From Patescibacteria group bacterium (GTDB taxonomy: Bacteria > Patescibacteriota > Patescibacteriia > GWA2-46-9), in assembly GCA_041660005.1 (NCBI GenBank), contig JBAZXG010000002.1, positions 122,037-186,036 on the forward strand: a DNA stretch of 64,000 nt. The letters are read 5' to 3'. The position numbers and the translations under genes are program-made. Positions 5,585 through 60,418 of the stretch are shown here, piece by piece. The stretch's first letter is position 1; each line of letters begins with the position of its first letter. Under the pieces are notes generated by a model. That model was not told the origin of the DNA. It did not search any database and saw only the letters and a program-made list of their open reading frames with translations.

Positions 5585-6345
5585 ACTGGGTTGGACTTGC
5601 CACGCTTTACTGGCGCGAAATTCGTCGAACCTTTCAGGTTTCGATGCAGACGATTTTCCCGCCTATCATTACGTCTCTTTTGTACATTCTCATTTTTGGG
5701 AACGTTCTAGGATCTCGTATTCAAGAAATTTTACCCGGAGTGAGTTACATTGATTTTATGATTCCGGGCCTCCTCATGATGAACGTAATCTCTGCCAGCT
5801 TTTCAAGTAGTTCGGCGGTTATTTATATTGGTAAGTTACAAAACACCACTTCAGAACTTTTAGTTGCACCACTTTCCTATTTAGAAATTGTTTTAGGGTT
5901 TGTGCTAGCGGCGACAACACGGGGTTTAATTGTTGGGATGGGCGTTTATGGCGTGGCTCTCTTTTTTACGACCGCAACCTTCGCGCATTTTTGGATGTTT
6001 CTCTATTTTGTTCTGGCGACATCACTCCTCTTTGGTGCCGTTGGGGCGATGGTGGGGCTCTGGGCAGAAACGTTTGATCACGTTAATTTACCGAATACGT
6101 TTGTTTTGCTACCCCTCTCATTTTTTGGTGGGGTGTTCCATTCTATTAGACTGCTGCCGAGCTGGATGCAGACGCTGAGTCAAGCAAATCCCGTTTTTTA
6201 CATGGTAAATGGCATTCGCGCGAGTATGATTGGTACTGCTGACGTGCCGATGTATGTATCAGCAATCGTCGTGCTACTCCTTGCTGCTGTCAGTTTGACC
6301 TTTTGCGTTCGACTTTTTCAAAAAGGATACAACTTGCGGAGTTAG
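5581..6345 (+). CDS. ABC-2 family transporter permease
   Basis: 6-TM hydrophobic profile, translationally coupled to upstream ATPase (ATGA overlap). Confidence 0.8.
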   Translation: MNWVGLATLYWREIRRTFQVSMQTIFPPIITSLLYILIFGNVLGSRIQEILPGVSYIDFMIPGLLMMNVISASFSSSSAVIYIGKLQNTTSELLVAPLSYLEIVLGFVLAATTRGLIVGMGVYGVALFFTTATFAHFWMFLYFVLATSLLFGAVGAMVGLWAETFDHVNLPNTFVLLPLSFFGGVFHSIRLLPSWMQTLSQANPVFYMVNGIRASMIGTADVPMYVSAIVVLLLAAVSLTFCVRLFQKGYNLRS

Positions 6346-6346
6346 T
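6321..6346 (+). repeat. 26-bp direct repeat, left copy (3' end of permease gene); matches 8689..8714
   Basis: aaaaggatacaacttgcggagttagt vs aaaaggatataacttgcggagttagt, one mismatch, 2368 bp apart. Confidence 0.8.
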
Positions 6347-7269: not shown

Positions 7270-8562
7270 ATGAGAATCGGAATCATTGATGGAGGTGGCC
7301 GTGGAGCCGCCATAGCGAACGCGCTTTACAACACGGGTCGCAGGACTCGTGATGTAACGCACGTTTACAACATTGGTCGCAGTGTGGTCGGCGGATACTT
7401 CGCCGGCTCGGCGCCGACGATCAACCCGAACGACGACGAGGCCATCGCGGCCTACGTCAGGAAGATGAAGATCGACATCATCATTCCGGCACGCGACGCG
7501 GAACTCTGCGCTGGTCTCGTCGATCGTCTGACGGCGCGCGGTATCACCACGGTCGGCCCAACGGCTGAGGCGGCTCAGCTTGAAGGAAGCAAGGGTTTCT
7601 TTGCCGACCTCTGTGCTACGGTCGGAATTCCTTCCCCAGCGTCGATCGTCTGTACCAGTACAGCTCGGGCATCCTCGGCTGTGCGTCTTCTACACCGTCG
7701 GTTTGGTCAACTCCCCGTTGAGAAAGCTGATGGGCTGTGGGATGGAAAGGGAGTAGTCGTTCCAGAGACCCTCGACGAGGCCGATGCAGCAATCGCGATG
7801 CTGATGGCTGGCGGCAAAGATGTCGTCATTCAAGAGCGTCTCGACGGAGTCGAGTTCTCTTTCTTTGCTCTTTCAGACGGGAAGGTTGCAGTTCCGGTCG
7901 GGTCGGCCATTGACTACAAACGCCTTCTCGACGGCAGCATTGGTCCGAATACGGGCGGCATGGGAGCGGTGTCGCCAGTTCCGTTCGTGACCAAGATTCT
8001 GGAAGATCGAGTGATGAGAGAGGTCGTGCGTCCGCTCCTGTGGGTGATGGCCCGCCGGGGTACGCCATGCCGCGGTATCATCTATTGCGGGATGATGTTG
8101 ACCAAAGAGGGGCTGAAGGTCCTCGAGGTGAACGTGCGTTTTGGTGATCCCGAGGCGCAAGGTCTCCTTCCGCGGCTCGATCAGGTAAACGGTGCGACCT
8201 TGGCTGAGCTGCTCGTCGCCACCACCAAGGATGGTGAGCTCGAAAAGCTCAGCGTCCGCCTGCGGCCGGAGGCCGCAGTCTGTGTGGTGATGGCGTCCGC
8301 GGGATACCCCGAGGCGCCGAGGGAGGGTGATCCCATCCAGGGGCTTATCACGAACGTGGAGGGCACCGAAGTCTTCCACGCCGGCACCAAGCTCGCTGAC
8401 GACAGGCGAACTTTCCTCACCGACGGTGGGCGCGTTCTCGACGTCGTCGGGTTCGCCCCGACGGTTTTCGAGGCACGTAAGCGCGCCTATGCTCGCGTCG
8501 ATACCATCAGCTGGGATGGTGAGCAGCACCGTCATGACATCGCCGAAGACATAGCCGCCTAG
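7270..8562 (+). CDS. purD: phosphoribosylamine--glycine ligase (PurD), GC-rich
   Basis: MRIGIIDGGGRG N-terminus, near-exact PurD motif AAQLEGSKGF, ATP-grasp; RBS aggaga upstream of 7270. Confidence 0.8.
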   Translation: MRIGIIDGGGRGAAIANALYNTGRRTRDVTHVYNIGRSVVGGYFAGSAPTINPNDDEAIAAYVRKMKIDIIIPARDAELCAGLVDRLTARGITTVGPTAEAAQLEGSKGFFADLCATVGIPSPASIVCTSTARASSAVRLLHRRFGQLPVEKADGLWDGKGVVVPETLDEADAAIAMLMAGGKDVVIQERLDGVEFSFFALSDGKVAVPVGSAIDYKRLLDGSIGPNTGGMGAVSPVPFVTKILEDRVMREVVRPLLWVMARRGTPCRGIIYCGMMLTKEGLKVLEVNVRFGDPEAQGLLPRLDQVNGATLAELLVATTKDGELEKLSVRLRPEAAVCVVMASAGYPEAPREGDPIQGLITNVEGTEVFHAGTKLADDRRTFLTDGGRVLDVVGFAPTVFEARKRAYARVDTISWDGEQHRHDIAEDIAA

Positions 8563-8583: not shown

Positions 8584-8665
8584 AAGGAGGGTTCAAACAG
8601 AACACAAGGAGGGAAGGCGGCGTTGTCACAGGGCAACGCCGTTTTTCCATGAGGAATATTTTGTG
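8584..8665 (+). repeat. about 80-bp unit containing an RBS-like aaggaggg and a rho-independent terminator (cggcgttg...caacgccg + TTTTT); copy 1 of 2
   Basis: Near-identical to 9209..9290; hairpin CGGCGTTG/CAACGCCG followed by gttttt. Confidence 0.75.
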
Positions 8666-8688
8666 ACTTTTCTTAGAAAAGTTTTTAG

Positions 8689-8714
8689 AAAAGGATATAA
8701 CTTGCGGAGTTAGT
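8689..8714 (+). repeat. 26-bp direct repeat, right copy (duplicate of permease 3' end), followed by hairpin gtcaac-tttaaacg-gttgac + T7 terminator at 8719-8750
   Basis: See 6321..6346. Confidence 0.8.
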
Positions 8715-9208: not shown

Positions 9209-9290
9209 AAGGAGGGTCAAACAGAACATGAGGAGGGAAGGCGGCGTTGTCACAGGGCAACGCCGTTTTTCCATGAGAGGAATTTTGTCC
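9209..9290 (+). repeat. 80-bp terminator-containing unit, copy 2 of 2
   Basis: Matches 8584..8665. Confidence 0.75.
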
Positions 9291-9662
9291 ATTTCTTTGT
9301 GCGGGCAAAGAAATGGACGAAAGAAAGCCCGCCCCGCATCGACGCTCCAGGTCGGCAGTCATTCCGAAACAAACACGGCGGCAATGAACTCGCCTTCAGC
9401 TCAAACAGCATTGCCGCTCAGTCGTGTTCGTTTCGTCTGTCTGTTCTCCCCGGTCGATGAGGGGGTGTTGCAGAGTCCAAATCCCATAGGATCGGCGTCA
9501 GAGCTTGCGATGGAAGTGAGTGCTCTAATCTTTTAGGAGACGGTCGTGGTAATGCGAACAGGGTCTGTGGCGTTTGCTAGTTGTTGATAATTTTTGACTT
9601 GCAGTTTTGCCTTTTGATTTTTGAATTACTACTTACCTGTGCAGCCCGAGGACGTTATGTTT
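9289..9662. repeat. R1 composite structured element, copy A (begins with hairpin ccatttctttg-tgcgggca-caaagaaatgg, ends ...cagcccgaggacgttatg)
   Basis: Shares modules with 30523..31007, 48861..49290, 60020..60356: the covarying stem module (c/a)atgaactcg(y)c...caaacagcat; the piece cccataggatcggcgtcagagcttgc (inverted relative to copy D); and gttgataatttttgacttgcagttttg shared with copy B. Confidence 0.8.
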
Positions 9663-9753
9663 GAAAATTTAAAACAATGTTTTTTAAGTGAACAAAAAAT
9701 GAGCACGACGGTTATCGTGCGTAAAGCTTATAGCGTATAACGTATAGCTTATT

Positions 9754-16769: not shown

Positions 16770-16917
16770 ATATTTAGCGAACTATTTTAACGGAACGGTC
16801 ACTGCATTGAGCCCCGATGTTGCAATCGGGGCCCCGACACGAAACCGTCGTCGGGGCTACGAGGGCGCACGGCGGGAAGTATATAGGAATAGCAGAGGAA
16901 TACCAGTCTAATGAGCT

Positions 16918-17035
16918 ATTATTTATTTTTGCCAATACCTCGTCGGCTTGCCGCGAAGATGTCATATACTGAGGCAAAAATATCCCTCGTAGCCGAGTTT
17001 GACTCGGCGAAGTGGGATTACCTAGTTTTCCCGTG
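16918..17035. repeat. R2 structured element, copy 1 (atttttgcc...cctcgtcggcttgccgcgagg...ggcaaaaat...gcgaagtgggattacct)
   Basis: Same element at 30231..30390 and 47963..48054; nested inverted repeats (9-bp outer stem, inner hairpin CCTCG(T)CGG-CTTG-CCGCGAGG). Confidence 0.8.
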
Positions 17036-17983
17036 AAACTGTTCGTGAACGTGACGCAGCTGTTGGTCGGTGAGGTGCGTGTAAATTTGCGTTGTGGTTA
17101 CTGAAGCGTGACCAAGAAGACTCTGCACTGACCGAAGATCAGCACCGTTAATAAGAAGGTCAGTGGCGAACGAGTGGCGGAGCGTATGCGGGCTCACTTT
17201 TTTTGTGATGCCGGCAACCTTGGCGTAGCGGCTGACGATGCGTTCAATACTGCGTGGTGTTAGTGGTGCGCCGCCCTCTTTGCGCTCGCGTTCCGTTTGT
17301 TTTGTCTTGGCGCGATCGTGGCGAATAAAAAGATAGGGCGAGGCGTCATGTCGCGCTTCAATATAAGAGCGAAGCAGCGCACGAGCGTCAGAAGAAAGAA
17401 ATACCACGCGCACCTTGCTACCCTTACCACGAACGCTGAATTCGGTGAGTGTATGCGCTTTGGTGTCGCGCAGGTTCACTTGGTCAATTTTTAAGTTTGC
17501 CAACTCAGAGACGCGCAGACCAGTTGAAAATGTTGATGCCAGCATCGCTTGGTCGCGTAGCATGAGAATTTTGGGCTGCTTCACGAGCGTTGGCGCGTTA
17601 AGTAGGCGTTCTAGTTCCGTGCTACTTAGAAATTCAATGGAGCGATCTGGCATTTTCATGAGTTCAATTTTCTCTGGCGCGAGACTCGTGACATCGCGCT
17701 TCGCTAGATATTTCAAAAATGAGCGCAGAGCAATGAGATGGTAATTCTGTGTATTTTTTTTAAGCGACTCACCCCGCGCATCAGTTAAACGATTCAGCCA
17801 TAGGCGATATTGCCGTATCAGCTCCGCGGATAGGTCTTTCGCATTTTTACTGCCACGTTCCTCGGCCCAGGCAACAAACCGATCAAGGTAGAAACTATAA
17901 TTGCGAATAGTCGCCGCGCTGCGGTTTCTTTCTATTTCTAAATATTCTAAAAATTCTTTGCGATAACGTTCGAGGTCGGCCAT
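17018..17983 (-). CDS. tyrosine recombinase XerC/XerD family
   Basis: C-terminal catalytic HTLRHSFATDLL...LLGHASVTTTQIYTH; N-terminal core-binding domain; start at MADLERY. Confidence 0.85.
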   Translation of the reverse strand: MADLERYRKEFLEYLEIERNRSAATIRNYSFYLDRFVAWAEERGSKNAKDLSAELIRQYRLWLNRLTDARGESLKKNTQNYHLIALRSFLKYLAKRDVTSLAPEKIELMKMPDRSIEFLSSTELERLLNAPTLVKQPKILMLRDQAMLASTFSTGLRVSELANLKIDQVNLRDTKAHTLTEFSVRGKGSKVRVVFLSSDARALLRSYIEARHDASPYLFIRHDRAKTKQTERERKEGGAPLTPRSIERIVSRYAKVAGITKKVSPHTLRHSFATDLLINGADLRSVQSLLGHASVTTTQIYTHLTDQQLRHVHEQFHGKTR

Positions 17984-30210: not shown

Positions 30211-30240
30211 TCTCCGGCCTCTGGCCGGAGTTTATTTTTG
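30211..30240 (+). terminator. recA terminator (ctccggcc-tc-tggccggag + TTTATTTTT) overlapping the start of R2 copy 2
   Basis: Perfect 8-bp stem followed by T-run. Confidence 0.65.
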
Positions 30241-30390
30241 CCTAACCACCTCGTCGGCTTGCCGCGAGGTTACCGTTGCAGAAGACAAAAATATCCCGCG
30301 TAGCTCCCTGACCGTCCGTAGCCTTGCTGTGTCCCGCCGTAGTTTTATACGAGCGGGAGCGAAGGAGGTTAGCGAAGTGGGATTACCTAT
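30231..30390. repeat. R2 structured element, copy 2 (expanded by an internal insertion of about 70 bp)
   Basis: tttatttttgcctaaccacctcgtcggcttgccgcgagg ... gcgaagtgggattacct. Confidence 0.8.
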
Positions 30391-30522
30391 TCATTTGGTG
30401 CTTTCACAAACGAAGAAATAACAACCCTGAGTAGAATCGAAGGGTTACAATCTTTATTTTTCATCCTTACATACTTGAGAATGTTGGTATGACAGTTTGC
30501 TTGTTTATTATATCACTCAGTA

Positions 30523-31007
30523 AACCTCGCCCCGTCTGACGGGGCTGTGGGTTGCCTACTTTCTTACTCGCCTAAGAAAGTAGGCGGAAAGAACGGCGCC
30601 CCTGTGTCGACACTATCGTCGGCGAACGTTCCTCAGTGCGGGTGGCGACAATGAACTCGTCTTCGTCTCAAACAGCATCGTCGCTTATTCACCCGCACTT
30701 CGTCCGTTCGCTCTCCTCGGTCGGCAATGGGGTTTGGCAGAGTGAAGTGAACAATTCCTTTAGGAAACGGCCGTGGTAACGGGAGCGGCGTCTACGGTGT
30801 TTATTTGCAGTTGATAATTTTTGACTTGCAGTTTTGACTTTTGCCTTTTGATTTATAATTTCTGCTAGCCCATACAGCTCGAGGACGTTATGTTTATGTA
30901 ATGAAACTCCTACAGGATCGGCGTCGGTAATGACCGAAGAGGAACATTCAGGGCGGGATTTCTTTCACCTCTTTCCTTGTCTAAACAAAGAAAGGAGTAC
31001 GGTTTCT
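30523..31007. repeat. R1 composite structured element, copy B
   Basis: hairpin ctactttctta-ctcgcc-taagaaagtag, module gacaatgaactcgtc...caaacagcatcgtcgc, gttgataatttttgacttgcagttttg, cagctcgaggacgttatg, ctcctacaggatcggcgtc, terminal hairpin. Confidence 0.8.
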
Positions 31008-34754: not shown

Positions 34755-34900
34755 TTATTGTTGTGTGGGTATTGAACTGCCTCGACGTTATGTCGGGGCA
34801 GTTTTATTTTTGCCGAGGATAGTGAGTGGAGTACAAACAGTAATTTGTATTTCCGAACGACGCAGGCATCAAAGGGTTTAGTATCCATGTATTATGTTTT

Positions 34901-34936
34901 TTACACCATTTTGTGCGTACGCACAAAATGGTGTAA
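34901..34936. repeat. 36-bp perfect palindrome P, copy 1 (TTACACCATTTTGTGC-GTAC-GCACAAAATGGTGTAA)
   Basis: Identical sequence at 47900..47935; flanking tattatgttttt is also shared in inverted orientation. Confidence 0.9.
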
Positions 34937-35025
34937 TTTGACACTTACGTAGCTCTGCCGCGTCGCCTTTCTCAATACGCCGGTGGGCGTATTGAGGGAG
35001 CCAGGGCTTTGCCTTGAGGTAGTTG

Positions 35026-37946: not shown

Positions 37947-38104
37947 GATCGCCGCACTTGCGGCAGCGTCTTATTCTTAATGAGCGCTGTTGATCGCCGC
38001 ACTTACGACAGCGTTTCGTTCTCGGTAAGTGTTGTTGACCCTGCACTTGTTCGGCAGCGTCTCGTTATCAATCGGTACTATAGGATCGCTGCACTTACGG
38101 CAGT
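37947..38104. repeat. degenerate tandem repeat, about 4 units of about 45 bp (GATCGCCGCACTTRCGRCAGCGTYT...)
   Basis: Units begin at about 37947, 37992, 38037, 38084; intergenic between ychF and the exonuclease gene. Confidence 0.7.
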
Positions 38105-47807: not shown

Positions 47808-47899
47808 ATGGTATTAACCCCATAGAAAGTCCCGGAGCATTTTATCTGCCACCGAGCGAACTGAAAAAGGGAGTGCGACAGAGCTACGTAAGTATCAAA

Positions 47900-47935
47900 T
47901 TACACCATTTTGTGCGTACGCACAAAATGGTGTAA
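47900..47935. repeat. 36-bp perfect palindrome P, copy 2
   Basis: Identical to 34901..34936. Confidence 0.9.
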
Positions 47936-47962
47936 AAAACATAATAAGTGATATTTAACCCT

Positions 47963-48054
47963 TTATTTTTGCCAATACCTCGTCGGCTTGCCGCGAGGTT
48001 ACCATATACTGAGGCAAAAATATCCCTCGTAGCTTTAGCGAAGTGGGATTACCT
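47963..48054. repeat. R2 structured element, copy 3
   Basis: ctttatttttgccaatacctcgtcggcttgccgcgaggttaccatatactgaggcaaaaatatccctcgtagctttagcgaagtgggattacct. Confidence 0.85.
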
Positions 48055-48133
48055 ATGTATACCCCGTCCCCTTTAGGGCGGGGTAATTGACTTGCCTGCG
48101 TCGGCTCGAAGACCCGGCAGTAAAGTTTTGATC

Positions 48134-48165
48134 CCCCGGACGCGCATTGTGTGGCGCGTCCGGGG
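48134..48165. other. GC-rich hairpin ccccggacgcgc-attgtgtg-gcgcgtccgggg (member of a CCCCGRRCGCGC...GCGCGYYCGGGG hairpin family downstream of small minus-strand genes)
   Basis: 12-bp perfect stem; no clear U-tract. Confidence 0.5.
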
Positions 48166-48198
48166 TATCGGGTTCGTAGCGTTGTCGCAGGAGAAGAG

Positions 48199-48333
48199 TT
48201 ATGTGTCCTCTTCAAACAAATCGGGTTTGAACATGCCGAACAGCTCTTCTTGCAGCCAATCAGGCAACCAAACGACGATTAGCACGACACCTGCGATGAT
48301 TACGAAAGCTACAACTGCCTTGAGTCTGCCCAT
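48199..48333 (-). CDS. small membrane peptide (44 aa) MGRLKAVVAFVIIAGVVLIVVWLPDWLQEELFGMFKPDLFEEDT
   Basis: Hand-translated; RBS ggagga 7 nt upstream; one TM helix; below the 60-aa ORF-track cutoff. Confidence 0.5.
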   Translation of the reverse strand: MGRLKAVVAFVIIAGVVLIVVWLPDWLQEELFGMFKPDLFEEDT

Positions 48334-48430
48334 GGTGATCCTCCGGCAAGACGTTTTTTGTTGTTACGGATGGCGCTAGTTTACACTCATGAATAACGCG
48401 GTCAAGTAAGTTTGTTTATAAAATTTTGAA

Positions 48431-48465
48431 CCCCGAGCGCGCTTGTGCATAACGCGCGCTCGGGG
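48431..48465 (-). terminator. rho-independent terminator for the small-peptide operon (ccccgagcgcgc-loop-gcgcgctcgggg, then U-run on minus strand)
   Basis: 12-bp GC stem followed on the minus strand by ttcaaaattt. Confidence 0.65.
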
Positions 48466-48477
48466 TTCGGGTTGTAC

Positions 48478-48600
48478 CTACACTCGCCAGTAGAAGTAAG
48501 TGTAGGTAACTAGAACGGCGAGGGCTCCGAAAATCCAGCGAAGCTGGACCAATTCGCTGTGGTTTTTCGGATCCCTCCAATAGGCAATGAATTCCCTCAT
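48478..48600 (-). CDS. small membrane peptide (40 aa) MREFIAYWRDPKNHSELVQLRWIFGALAVLVTYTYFYWRV
   Basis: Hand-translated; RBS gggagg upstream; immediately followed by terminator hairpin. Confidence 0.5.
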   Translation of the reverse strand: MREFIAYWRDPKNHSELVQLRWIFGALAVLVTYTYFYWRV

Positions 48601-48636
48601 AGCATGCTTCCTCCCTCTCAAGAGTATCTACGCGTG

Positions 48637-48780
48637 CTAGTCCGCGCGGATTCTTGATACCCATTCATTCAGGAGCCATATCCCGTCGTATACAGCAAAC
48701 AGCAGAAGTACGCCGAGTATTACGAGTTCAGGAGTAATACTCGGTTGGTCGTTATGCGTGGAATCGTCGGTCGGTCTCAT
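48637..48780 (-). CDS. small membrane peptide (47 aa) MRPTDDSTHNDQPSITPELVILGVLLLFAVYDGIWLLNEWVSRIRAD
   Basis: Hand-translated; RBS ggaggg upstream; one TM helix; apparently co-transcribed with the 48478..48600 peptide. Confidence 0.5.
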   Translation of the reverse strand: MRPTDDSTHNDQPSITPELVILGVLLLFAVYDGIWLLNEWVSRIRAD

Positions 48781-48860
48781 GCAGTCCCTCCTGGTTTTTT
48801 GCACTGCTGCAGATTAAAATTAGTTTAACGTTATTAAAGACAAAATCAAGTTCAAATTGT

Positions 48861-49290
48861 CCACTTTCTTACTTGTCTAAGAAAGTGGACGGAAAGAATG
48901 ACACCCTGAGGACTCGGCTGTGGGCTTGCTTCATACAGCAGACTGCTGACCATGAACTCGTCATCCGCCCCATAGCGGATTCCTCAAACAGCATGGTCAC
49001 TAAGTGCAGTCTGCTTCCCTCGCAAGCTTTGACGCCGATCCTAAGGGATTTTGCACTCTGCTCTGCCAAACCCCTGGTGTCCGGTCGTGGCAATGAGGAC
49101 GAAGACAGGACGAAAGAAAACAAGAGCATGTGTGAGATGAACCACAAGGTGAGGCGAGTTTGCTCTTGTTCGTCCTGCTGAGGAAGGAATGCCCGACCGG
49201 AGCACCCGGGGCGGGCTTCTTTGGGTACTTTCTTGCCCGCACAAGAAAGTACCAACTAGTCGCGAGGGCACAGCCCGAGGACGTTATGAG
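48861..49290. repeat. R1 composite structured element, copy C
   Basis: hairpin ccactttctta-cttgtc-taagaaagtgg; cctgaggactcggctgtgggcttgcttc; gaccatgaactcgtc...caaacagcatggtca; gacgccgatcctaaggg; hairpin gtactttcttg-cccgca-caagaaagtac; cagcccgaggacgttatg. Confidence 0.8.
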
Positions 49291-49341
49291 TTAAAGAAAA
49301 AGAAATGAAAAATCAAATTAAAAACAGCTGTAAATTTATAT

Positions 49342-49375
49342 CCCCGGGCGCGCACTCTATAGCACGCGTCCGGGG
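49342..49375 (-). terminator. terminator-like GC hairpin downstream of the Flp pilin gene (ccccgggcgcgc...cgcgtccgggg) with AT-rich tail on the minus strand
   Basis: Same hairpin family as 48134..48165 and 48431..48465. Confidence 0.5.
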
Positions 49376-49427
49376 CGGGTCGGGTGGCGAAGTCCGCCAG
49401 CTGGCGGATTCTCCGCCGGCTGCGAGC

Positions 49428-49580
49428 TCAGTTGGTCGTCGGAACGACCGGTGCCAGTTGCTGCGAACCGACGACGCTCATGGCCACGATGGCCGCGATC
49501 GAAATCAGTGCGGCGAGCAGAGCGTACTCAGCGACCGTCGCCGCGGTCTCGTCTTTCAAGAAAGCAACAAAACGTTCCAT
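49428..49580 (-). CDS. Flp/Fap-family type IVb (Tad) pilin (50 aa) MERFVAFLKDETAATVAEYALLAALISIAAIVAMSVVGSQQLAPVVPTTN
   Basis: Hand-translated. Characteristic Flp motif FLKDE..A.EYALLAALI followed by a hydrophobic helix; RBS gaggga upstream; GC-rich. Confidence 0.65.
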   Translation of the reverse strand: MERFVAFLKDETAATVAEYALLAALISIAAIVAMSVVGSQQLAPVVPTTN

Positions 49581-49728
49581 GTTTTTCCCTCGAGGTCGAT
49601 TTCCGTACTACTGTCGTACGGATGGCTCGTAGGTTACACATACAAATATTTCATGTCAACTTTTTCGTAAATAAAAAAGAGTCGCCACACACGGGGCGAC
49701 TCTTTTTTATAAAGATTAAATTTACTTT

Positions 49729-59812: not shown

Positions 59813-60019
59813 GGGGAGAATAATATATTTTTCTTCTTCTATATTATAGCACCTTAAATTTGTCCTGCGATGCAGGACTGTAATTTGTTCGTTTTCGTCT
59901 TCTTAAGCTGCTAACGTCCTCGGTCCGCCGAGGTGGACCTCGCGACTGTTTGTTACTCTTTTGCGCACCCAAAATTTATTAACAAGAGCAAGTCCGCCAG
60001 AGGCGGATCCGCCTTTGGC

Positions 60020-60356
60020 GGAAAAAGGGTGCCCTGAGGACTCGGCTGTGGGCTTGCTTCGTGCAGCAGGCTGCTGACCATGAACTTGTCGCTTCGCTCC
60101 GCAAACAGCATGGTCATTAAATGCAGCCTGTTTCCCTTGCAAGCTCTGACGCCGATCCTATGGGATGAGCACTTTGCTAAACCCCATTGCCGACCGCGGA
60201 AAGCGAACGGACGAAGTGTGGGTGGTTAAGCGACGGTGTTGTTTGAAGCGGAGCAAGTTCATCGTCGCCATCCACACTGAGGAACGTTCGCCGACGAGAG
60301 TGTCGGCACAGGGCGGGCTTTCTTTCGTCTATTTCTTTGCCCGCACAAAGAAATAG
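60020..60356. repeat. R1 composite structured element, copy D (left half like copy C; right half is the reverse complement of the copy-B module)
   Basis: cctgaggactcggctgtgggcttgcttc; gaccatgaacttgtc...caaacagcatggtca; gacgccgatcctatggg; inverted B-like segment; terminal hairpin ctatttctttg-cccgca-caaagaaatag. Confidence 0.8.
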
Positions 60357-60418
60357 ACAACTTAATTTGTATTTGCGATTTCGCAAAAAATGTGCTAAAA
60401 TAAAAAAACTATCATTCT

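Follow-up and report, generated by a model that had tools for sequence, protein, structure and literature searches.

The question raised by this locus is what a structured sequence of about 100 bases is doing in three places along a single 64-kb stretch of bacterial DNA (hereafter the window). Judging by its sequence, the window comes from an Uhrbacteria-like Patescibacteria (CPR) metagenome-assembled genome (MAG), and its RecA is 100% identical to a protein recorded under a Patescibacteria group bacterium MAG and 88% identical to that of Candidatus Uhrbacteria CG10. The sequence, named R2 here, is a real structured repeat placed behind housekeeping genes, its neighbours being xerD/tRNA-Arg(tct) for copy 1, recA for copy 2 and murD for copy 3. 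Exactly three full copies are found in the window, all on the + strand, at 16922-17024 (copy 1, 125 bits with a covariance model), 30231-30389 (copy 2, 98 bits) and 47962-48055 (copy 3, 119 bits). Run over the window with filters off, the covariance model returned these three copies and nothing further above 16 bits, while the 21-mer pattern of the inner hairpin and the 18-nt pattern of the tail each matched three sites, against 0.00-0.02 expected from shuffles. The first-pass annotation had proposed three copies sharing an outer stem, an inner hairpin, a second hairpin and a conserved tail; the copies were borne out nearly to the base, with their limits now refined, all four parts are present in each of them, and the stem is lengthened from 9 to 10 bp.

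Read from 5′ to 3′, R2 is composed of a T-run with the outer stem, the tetranucleotide AATA, the inner hairpin (h2), a 14-nt spacer, a second hairpin and a tail. The outer stem (TATTTTTGCC/GGCAAAAATA), to which the T-run itself contributes, is located at 16924-16933/16973-16982 in copy 1, at 30233-30242/30284-30293 in copy 2, where GACAAAAATA produces one C.A mismatch, and at 47964-47973/48013-48022 in copy 3. The h2 hairpin, CCTCG-T-CGG CTTG CCG-CGAGG with a bulged T, occupies 16938-16958 (with GAAG and one mismatch in this copy), 30249-30269 and 47978-47998, respectively. The second hairpin, ATCCC...GGGAT, exists in all three copies with a tip of variable length; it is located at about 16983-17017 in copy 1, is enlarged in copy 2 and is short in copy 3. 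The tail, GCGAAGTGGGATTACCTA, is invariant in the three copies, ending at 17024 in copy 1 and spanning 48038-48055 in copy 3. The internal insertion of about 70 bp that had been reported for copy 2 corresponds to ~56-65 additional nt that lengthen the tip of the second hairpin and fold as an extension of that hairpin. This tip (30294-30371) is built from duplications of the hairpin's own arms, with a CGTAGC-like sequence three times on the 5′ side and AGCGAAGG/AGCGAAGT twice (GCGAAG twice) on the 3′ side, which suggests slippage and not a foreign insert. RNA folds of R2 gave z-scores of -2.9 to -3.4 relative to shuffles, and neither strand was favoured.

In the alignment, R2 has sharp ends, beyond which the three copies have unrelated flanks. 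Terminal inverted repeats are absent from R2, whose two ends (TTTATTTTTGCC... and ...GGGATTACCTA, or ...TAATTGAC) do not match in inverted orientation, and no target-site duplication surrounds any of the three copies, whose flanks share nothing. All three copies are carried by the G-rich (+) strand, copy 1 included, though it is established amid minus-strand genes; across all loci, local GC skew was positive in 15 of 22 instances. Just after copy 3 there is a third hairpin, h3 (48058-48091, + strand; TATACCCCG-T-CCCC TTTA GGG-CGGGG TAATTGAC), which has a bulged T in the manner of h2 (overall CCCCG-T-CCCC...GGG-CGGGG, then TAATTGAC). R2 is continued by h3 in the homologue L030 too and, in a variant form, in the homologue L032; h3 is the probable right-end hairpin of the full R2 element, and copies 1 and 2 are without it. 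R2 is a modular element, with an optional second hairpin of variable length and, in complete copies, a further bulged hairpin (h3) near the right end. Beside copy 2, a short stretch at 30413-30452 (+ strand) matches the 3′ half of R2 as represented in L032 and L033, and contains an A-run, a CCCTGAG...TCGAAGGGTT hairpin and TTAC. Its sequence identifies it as a decayed remnant of a second insertion and, as it aligns with a second R2 subfamily, the 3′ site of recA was hit more than once.

Evidence on how R2 came to these positions was drawn from an empty-site comparison with the orthologous loci of three related genomes. Concerning recA, no R2 follows the gene in the relatives (L034 and L036), where the stop codon is succeeded by a terminator hairpin. 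The corresponding hairpin of the window is located at 30212-30230 (+ strand) and, in agreement with the earlier placement of copy 2 at the recA terminator, R2 starts directly after it, so that the T-tract of the terminator is at the same time the first 10 nt of copy 2 (TTTATTTTTG). Likewise, no R2 was found after xerD in L039, L041 and L045, the last of which is syntenic and presents xerD, ~170 nt and tRNA-Arg(tct) without any R2. In the window, copy 1 is established in antisense between xerD and tRNA-Arg, both of which are encoded by the minus strand. The gene for the XerD-like tyrosine recombinase (17018-17983, minus strand), which the first-pass annotation had seen next to copy 1, overlaps it with its 3′ end, stop codon included. 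This gene ends with GGG AAA ACT AGG TAA, compared with GGG AAA CGG AAA TAA in L039, and its last two codons and stop (ACT AGG TAA; 17018-17026) are the reverse complement of the R2 tail; copy 1 therefore supplies the end of xerD, and the C-terminus of the protein reads ...FHGKTR* here versus ...FHGKRK* in its closest relative. As for murD, the relatives (L043 and L044) have no R2 after the gene; a terminator hairpin, CCCCGGAC.../...GTCCGGGG, comes 8-10 nt behind the stop codon. This ancestral hairpin is kept in the window at 48133-48165 (+ strand), ~320-325 nt past the murD stop, and the stretch in between holds a 121-nt palindrome-bearing repeat, R2, the h3 module and 41 further nt. Because the murD terminator is located beyond copy 3, this copy must be transcribed as part of the murD 3′ UTR.

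The displaced murD terminator, the xerD stop supplied by R2 and the sites that are empty in the relatives show that R2 was inserted at three unrelated housekeeping loci. The covariance model did not detect any copy in ~120 kb from the three relatives, compared with three in the 64 kb studied here. These relatives are distant (RecA 88-91% and MurD 55-61% identity), and the insertions are consequently not datable from this comparison. The whole murD-gdh intergenic region (47808-49728) measures 1.9 kb in the window versus ~0.5 kb in L043 and L044, and is composed of the palindrome repeat, R2, h3, further hairpins, a copy of the repeat R1 described below and an ORF of 121 aa (49305-49670), for which no Pfam match was obtained.

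The neighbourhood of copy 1 also offers some similarity to tRNA. The sequence CCCTCGTAGCT is found both in the second hairpin of R2, which terminates in ...ACC(A), and at the 5′ end of the adjacent tRNA-Arg. A tRNA-like element was considered and rejected because of poor acceptor pairing, a CCA out of register and no ARAGORN call. Separately, the interval between copy 1 and tRNA-Arg (16800-16870, minus strand) contains a stretch, GCCCTCGTAGCCCCGACGACGG...CCGATTGCAACATCGGGG, that starts with an 11-nt repeat of the tRNA-Arg gene's 5′ end (GCCCTCGTAGC); its CCCTCGTAGC motif also forms the start of the second R2 hairpin, read from the other strand. This stretch could be a tRNA-derived fragment or a product of chance.

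Absence from all related genomes, which had been envisaged as an argument against R2, was not observed, as other metagenomes and MAGs yielded homologues. Species-representative genomes, scanned once with a 19-mer core, led to 28 loci, about a dozen of which look like chance matches in GC-rich coding sequence, while at ~16 the core is part of a non-coding, multi-hairpin element. A 25-nt core of the inner hairpin (ATACCTCGTCGGCTTGCCGCGAGGT) is identical in 12 of all the loci fetched, at intergenic and non-syntenic sites. Its hosts belong to the CPR (Taylor-, Falkow-, Vogel- and Saccharibacteria and other MAGs), the Bacteroidota and the Bdellovibrionales, and conserved synteny was rejected, since the genes upstream of the related elements differ (Band 7, DUF5683, FtsZ, HAD, RpoC and others). 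True R2-type homologues, with an outer stem around h2, are L021, which equals L033 (Saccharibacteria), L032, L030 and L031, the last three derived from a metagenome scan; L030 is devoid of the second hairpin and L031 bears a tip of the copy 1 type. Together with the three copies of the window, they give seven R2-type sequences, in which 98% of the cells are paired in a model-fitted alignment. The outer stem covaries and its structure is under selection: six of its 10 pairs have changed on both sides in a compensatory manner (GCC/GGC, GTC/GAC and AGCT/AGCT among the double changes), a level reached by none of 500 shuffles. The sample is small (seven sequences) and the alignment was fitted to the structure, while the compensatory changes are plain by eye. 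Across the same sequences h2 is invariant, save for one U.G pair and one C.A mismatch.

The other elements are what we call type A (L007 at 7583-7778, L016 at ~7499-7614, L009, L012, L017, L018, L020, L023, L025, L027 and L028). These are non-coding, multi-hairpin elements of 100-200 nt which end 9 nt after h2 (...GAGG TAGTTCATT) and have a second, h2-like hairpin (h1) ~20-22 nt inside their left end. One of them, 116 nt long and sharply bounded, recurs with 99% identity on two contigs belonging to the same MAG, and another one, of 196 nt, is shared at 92% identity by two Bacteroidota MAGs in which its flanks are unrelated. Type A elements are found beside various unrelated housekeeping genes in MAGs of CPR, Bacteroidota and Bdellovibrionales, and are probably the larger family that R2 belongs to.

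R2 is not the only repeat of the window. R1, a mosaic repeat of 350-450 nt, has copies at 9285-9666, 30545-30899 and 48880-49295 on the + strand and at 59893-60360 on the minus strand, and has the look of a true structured RNA. It opens at the 5′ end with a 12-bp hairpin, the loop of which is paired to a segment ~8 nt further downstream. The pairing covaries between copies (GCGGGC/GCCCGC, CGCC/GGCG, TGTC/GACA), as does a second stem, GGCGACAATG...CATCGTCGC (GGCGGCAATG/CATTGCCGC). R1 has no Rfam match and ends in GAGGACGTTATG, with no conserved ORF after it. A third family, the palindrome-bearing repeat already encountered behind murD, consists of two 121-nt copies, 81% identical, at 34890-35010 and, inverted, at 47826-47946, the latter 15 nt upstream of R2 copy 3. 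Its centre is a perfect 36-nt palindrome (TTACACCATTTTGTGCGTACGCACAAAATGGTGTAA; 34901-34936 and 47900-47935), and a near-identical palindrome is located in the metagenome contig L031 (1125-1164), ~40 nt downstream of the R2 homologue. A repeat finder additionally detected a 75-nt pair, 91% identical, near purD (8590-8664 and 9214-9288), a 33-nt pair (6314-6346 and 8682-8714) and a 45-nt tandem duplication (37947-38036).

Similarity searches with R2 led to no known family. At the gathering threshold, Rfam 15 recognised only two tRNAs in the window. At E<=10, the surroundings of copy 3 yielded only a weak and non-significant HEARO alignment on the wrong strand (17 bits, versus a gathering score of 83). 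The 16 related loci gave tRNAs only, and the type A elements are covered by no family. BLAST of R2 against PLSDB and INPHARED returned nothing and the h2 21-mer had no match in IMG/VR, where a single 18-mer match (L029) was set aside as a chance occurrence inside a coding sequence; a phage or plasmid origin was rejected, as phage, plasmid and viral collections gave no match. A literature search by R2 sequence strings and by topic returned nothing relevant. A group IIC intron inserted after a terminator was also considered and rejected, as Rfam showed no intron domains, the 5′ end is unsuitable and R2 is not part of one unit with R1, from which it is spaced differently at the two sites.

We are inclined to regard R2 as a non-autonomous mobile repeat of the REP or IS200/IS605-derived 'PATE' kind, and consider this reading slightly on the probable side. 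R2 would then represent a new family of a known kind, that of the hairpin-bearing non-coding repeats of the REP/PATE type. The specific HUH mechanism is given about half that credence, because no enzyme was found. Among the suggestions of the first-pass annotation, a REP/MITE-like element fits best, in view of the sharp ends, the empty sites, the decayed fragment and the core found in other phyla. REPs are palindromes of 20-40 nt with a 5′ GTAG that often occur as inverted pairs and reach hundreds of copies; their movement in trans is attributed to a single-copy HUH enzyme (RAYT, TnpA-REP), and they can stabilise upstream mRNA. R2 resembles REPs, BIMEs and REPINs in being a short, structured, intergenic repeat at gene 3′ ends with bulged imperfect hairpins, but differs in its length (~100-130 nt), in its several distinct hairpins, in forming no inverted doublet and in having three known copies. 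GTAG occurs only in the variable second hairpin of R2, and no Y1_Tnp match was obtained. Bacterial MITEs (Correia/NEMIS, RUP, ERIC) are also non-coding and intergenic, measure ~100-200 nt, are structured when transcribed and vary in internal length. In classical MITEs, however, terminal inverted repeats are accompanied by target-site duplications that DDE transposases produce; as R2 has neither, it is not a DDE-type MITE.

The closest geometry is that of the IS200/IS605 elements, which have no inverted repeats, make no duplications and are recognised through imperfect subterminal hairpins on one strand (PMC3201880; PMC5934647). Their insertion takes place in single-stranded form on the 3′ side of a short target, preferably in the lagging-strand template (PMC3201880; PMC5934647), and IS608 is cut 19 nt 5′ of its left hairpin and 10 nt 3′ of its right one (PMC3201880). 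Like these elements and the PATEs, R2 is devoid of terminal inverted repeats and target-site duplications and has bulged hairpins on one strand, while being small, non-coding and dispersed. In R2 (copy 3, L030 and L032), the left end is separated from h2 by 16 nt and the right end from h3 by 8 nt; in type A elements, the corresponding distances are ~22 nt for h1 on the left and 9 nt for h2 on the right. Taken together, the spacings are about 16-22 nt on the left and 8-10 nt on the right, against 19 and 10 for IS608. All R2 copies of the window are on one replication strand. Unlike IS200/IS605, R2 places its left hairpin inside a covarying outer stem and has an extra, optional middle hairpin, the right-end hairpin is absent from copies 1 and 2, and no cognate tnpA or tnpB was found near R2 elements. 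TTAT precedes TTTT(G/A) in all seven R2-type copies and is complementary to the AATA found 5′ of h2, although a target motif is inseparable here from the sequence of R2, because TTAT is A/T-rich and part of the outer stem. Guide and cleavage tetranucleotides were not identified in R2 when the IS608 pairing rule was applied. Membership of IS200/IS605 is consequently not established, considering the missing cognate transposase, the missing target and guide, and the missing h3 in two of the three copies.

Regarding the enzyme, no Y1/TnpA, TnpB or RAYT was found in the window or in ~330 kb of related loci (Pfam, 128 neighbouring proteins), a search which reached ~8-20 kb around each related element, and tblastn with an approximate IS608 TnpA query gave no match in the window or in the related loci. 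A TnpB omega-RNA or an IS605 right end beside its gene was rejected as well, as neither TnpB nor TnpA is found upstream of any element. With no transposase found in the window or beside any related element, the mobilising enzyme is hypothetical. In the mechanism that we propose, h2 (and h3) would serve as handles recognised in single-stranded form by an enzyme encoded elsewhere, the likeliest candidate being an HUH/Y1 single-strand transposase or a RAYT-like protein. T-rich tracts at the 3′ ends of genes may tolerate insertion or be favoured for it; there, the T-run of R2 could replace the U-tract of a terminator, and copies so oriented would survive. Inserted copies would then decay through point mismatches, tip expansion and truncation. 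When R2 is located upstream of a terminator, as copy 3 is, its hairpins in the 3′ UTR may act like REPs, as a side effect and not as its raison d'être.

The alternative that survives best is a functional structured RNA, either a 3′-UTR element or a 3′-UTR-derived small RNA, whose spread would be secondary. According to it, the invariant hairpin would bind a conserved protein, with the outer stem and the second hairpin as a scaffold. This is rather unlikely in our judgement, although several observations speak for it: the outer stem covaries, the folds are stable and have a canonical G(CUUG)C tetraloop, six of the seven R2-type copies closely follow a gene and share its orientation, and it is in copy 1, the single anti-oriented one, that the otherwise invariant region has changed. 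The necessary transcription of copy 3 with murD, and L032, which is followed by a terminator made of a hairpin and T7, point in the same direction. However, copy 2 and several homologues start after a terminator hairpin, where poor transcription is expected, and the non-syntenic sites, together with the absence from relatives, still demand mobility. The strand of action is left undecided by G.U wobbles and mismatches, with three cases in favour of the + strand and two of the minus strand, and an invariant stem sequence such as that of h2 is more typical of a protein or DNA recognition site than of a helix that acts purely as RNA. No conserved sigma-70-like promoter was found in or before R2, where the upstream sequences are unrelated, and an independent small-RNA gene is therefore unlikely. 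Of the small-RNA family put forward by the first-pass annotation, the promoter of its own and the Rfam family are missing, whereas a role within 3′ UTRs is possible.

A bolder version of the RNA reading, to which we give little credence, is that the h2 module (AUACCUCGUCGGCUUGCCGCGAGGU) constitutes a new class of structured RNA spreading horizontally in CPR, Bacteroidota and Bdellovibrionales. If true, h2 could be a protein handle, a guide-like RNA or a ribozyme on small mobile units, and R2 and the neighbouring R1 would be working RNAs and not junk. Very unlikely, in our view, is a vertically inherited terminator-linked or regulatory sequence that was lost in the relatives, or else a segmental duplication; the T-run of R2 does act as the recA terminator tract and its location is always intergenic, but the flanks of the three copies are unrelated up to the ends, the murD terminator is conserved with R2 upstream of it, the xerD stop is replaced and the same core occurs in other phyla.

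The first-pass annotation had also linked R2 to R1 and to the recombinase, and the proximity it described is real: the distance to the start of R1 is ~165 nt from copy 2 and ~830 nt from copy 3. These unequal spacings show that R2 to R1 is not a single unit. Among about 24 intergenic regions of at least 100 nt, three have R2, four have R1 and two have both, a hypergeometric p of ~0.06 that is not significant and does not yet allow for region length. The recombinase, in turn, has thousands of homologues in Patescibacteria (58-82% identity, named XerD by the sources) and is found next to S15, NYN and PNPase in the relatives; this wide distribution and conserved synteny indicate a chromosomal Xer and not the integrase of a mobile element. 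Recombination sites of a Xer or integron type (attC-like) for the adjacent recombinase, possibly together with R1, are hence barely credible: copy 1 does abut a tyrosine recombinase gene, two copies are near R1, and R2 loosely recalls attC, which is likewise a folded single-strand site behind genes and has two stems, extrahelical bases (in R2 the T of h2), an unpaired spacer and a variable tip, but R2 has no R''(RYYYAAC)/R'(GTTRRRY) cores, cassette arrays or intI, the XerD-like gene is syntenic in relatives without R2, six of the seven R2-type copies have no recombinase nearby and the overlap with R1 is that just given. The links of R2 to R1 and to the recombinase look coincidental.

We return to the mobile repeat of the REP/PATE kind and to its meaning for these bacteria. 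CPR/Patescibacteria genomes are tiny and tightly packed, and non-coding insertions behind recA, murD and xerD are for that reason notable. The insertions of R2 point to an active or recently active mobilising system, of a sort undescribed for CPR. For annotation, R2 explains the altered C-terminus of XerD, the hybrid terminator of recA and a murD 3′ UTR longer by ~320 nt. The 25-nt core, identical across phyla, is a handle for finding the whole family and the enzyme that moves it, possibly a new HUH/RAYT-type or TnpB-linked system, as well as for tracing gene flow between CPR and their neighbours or hosts.
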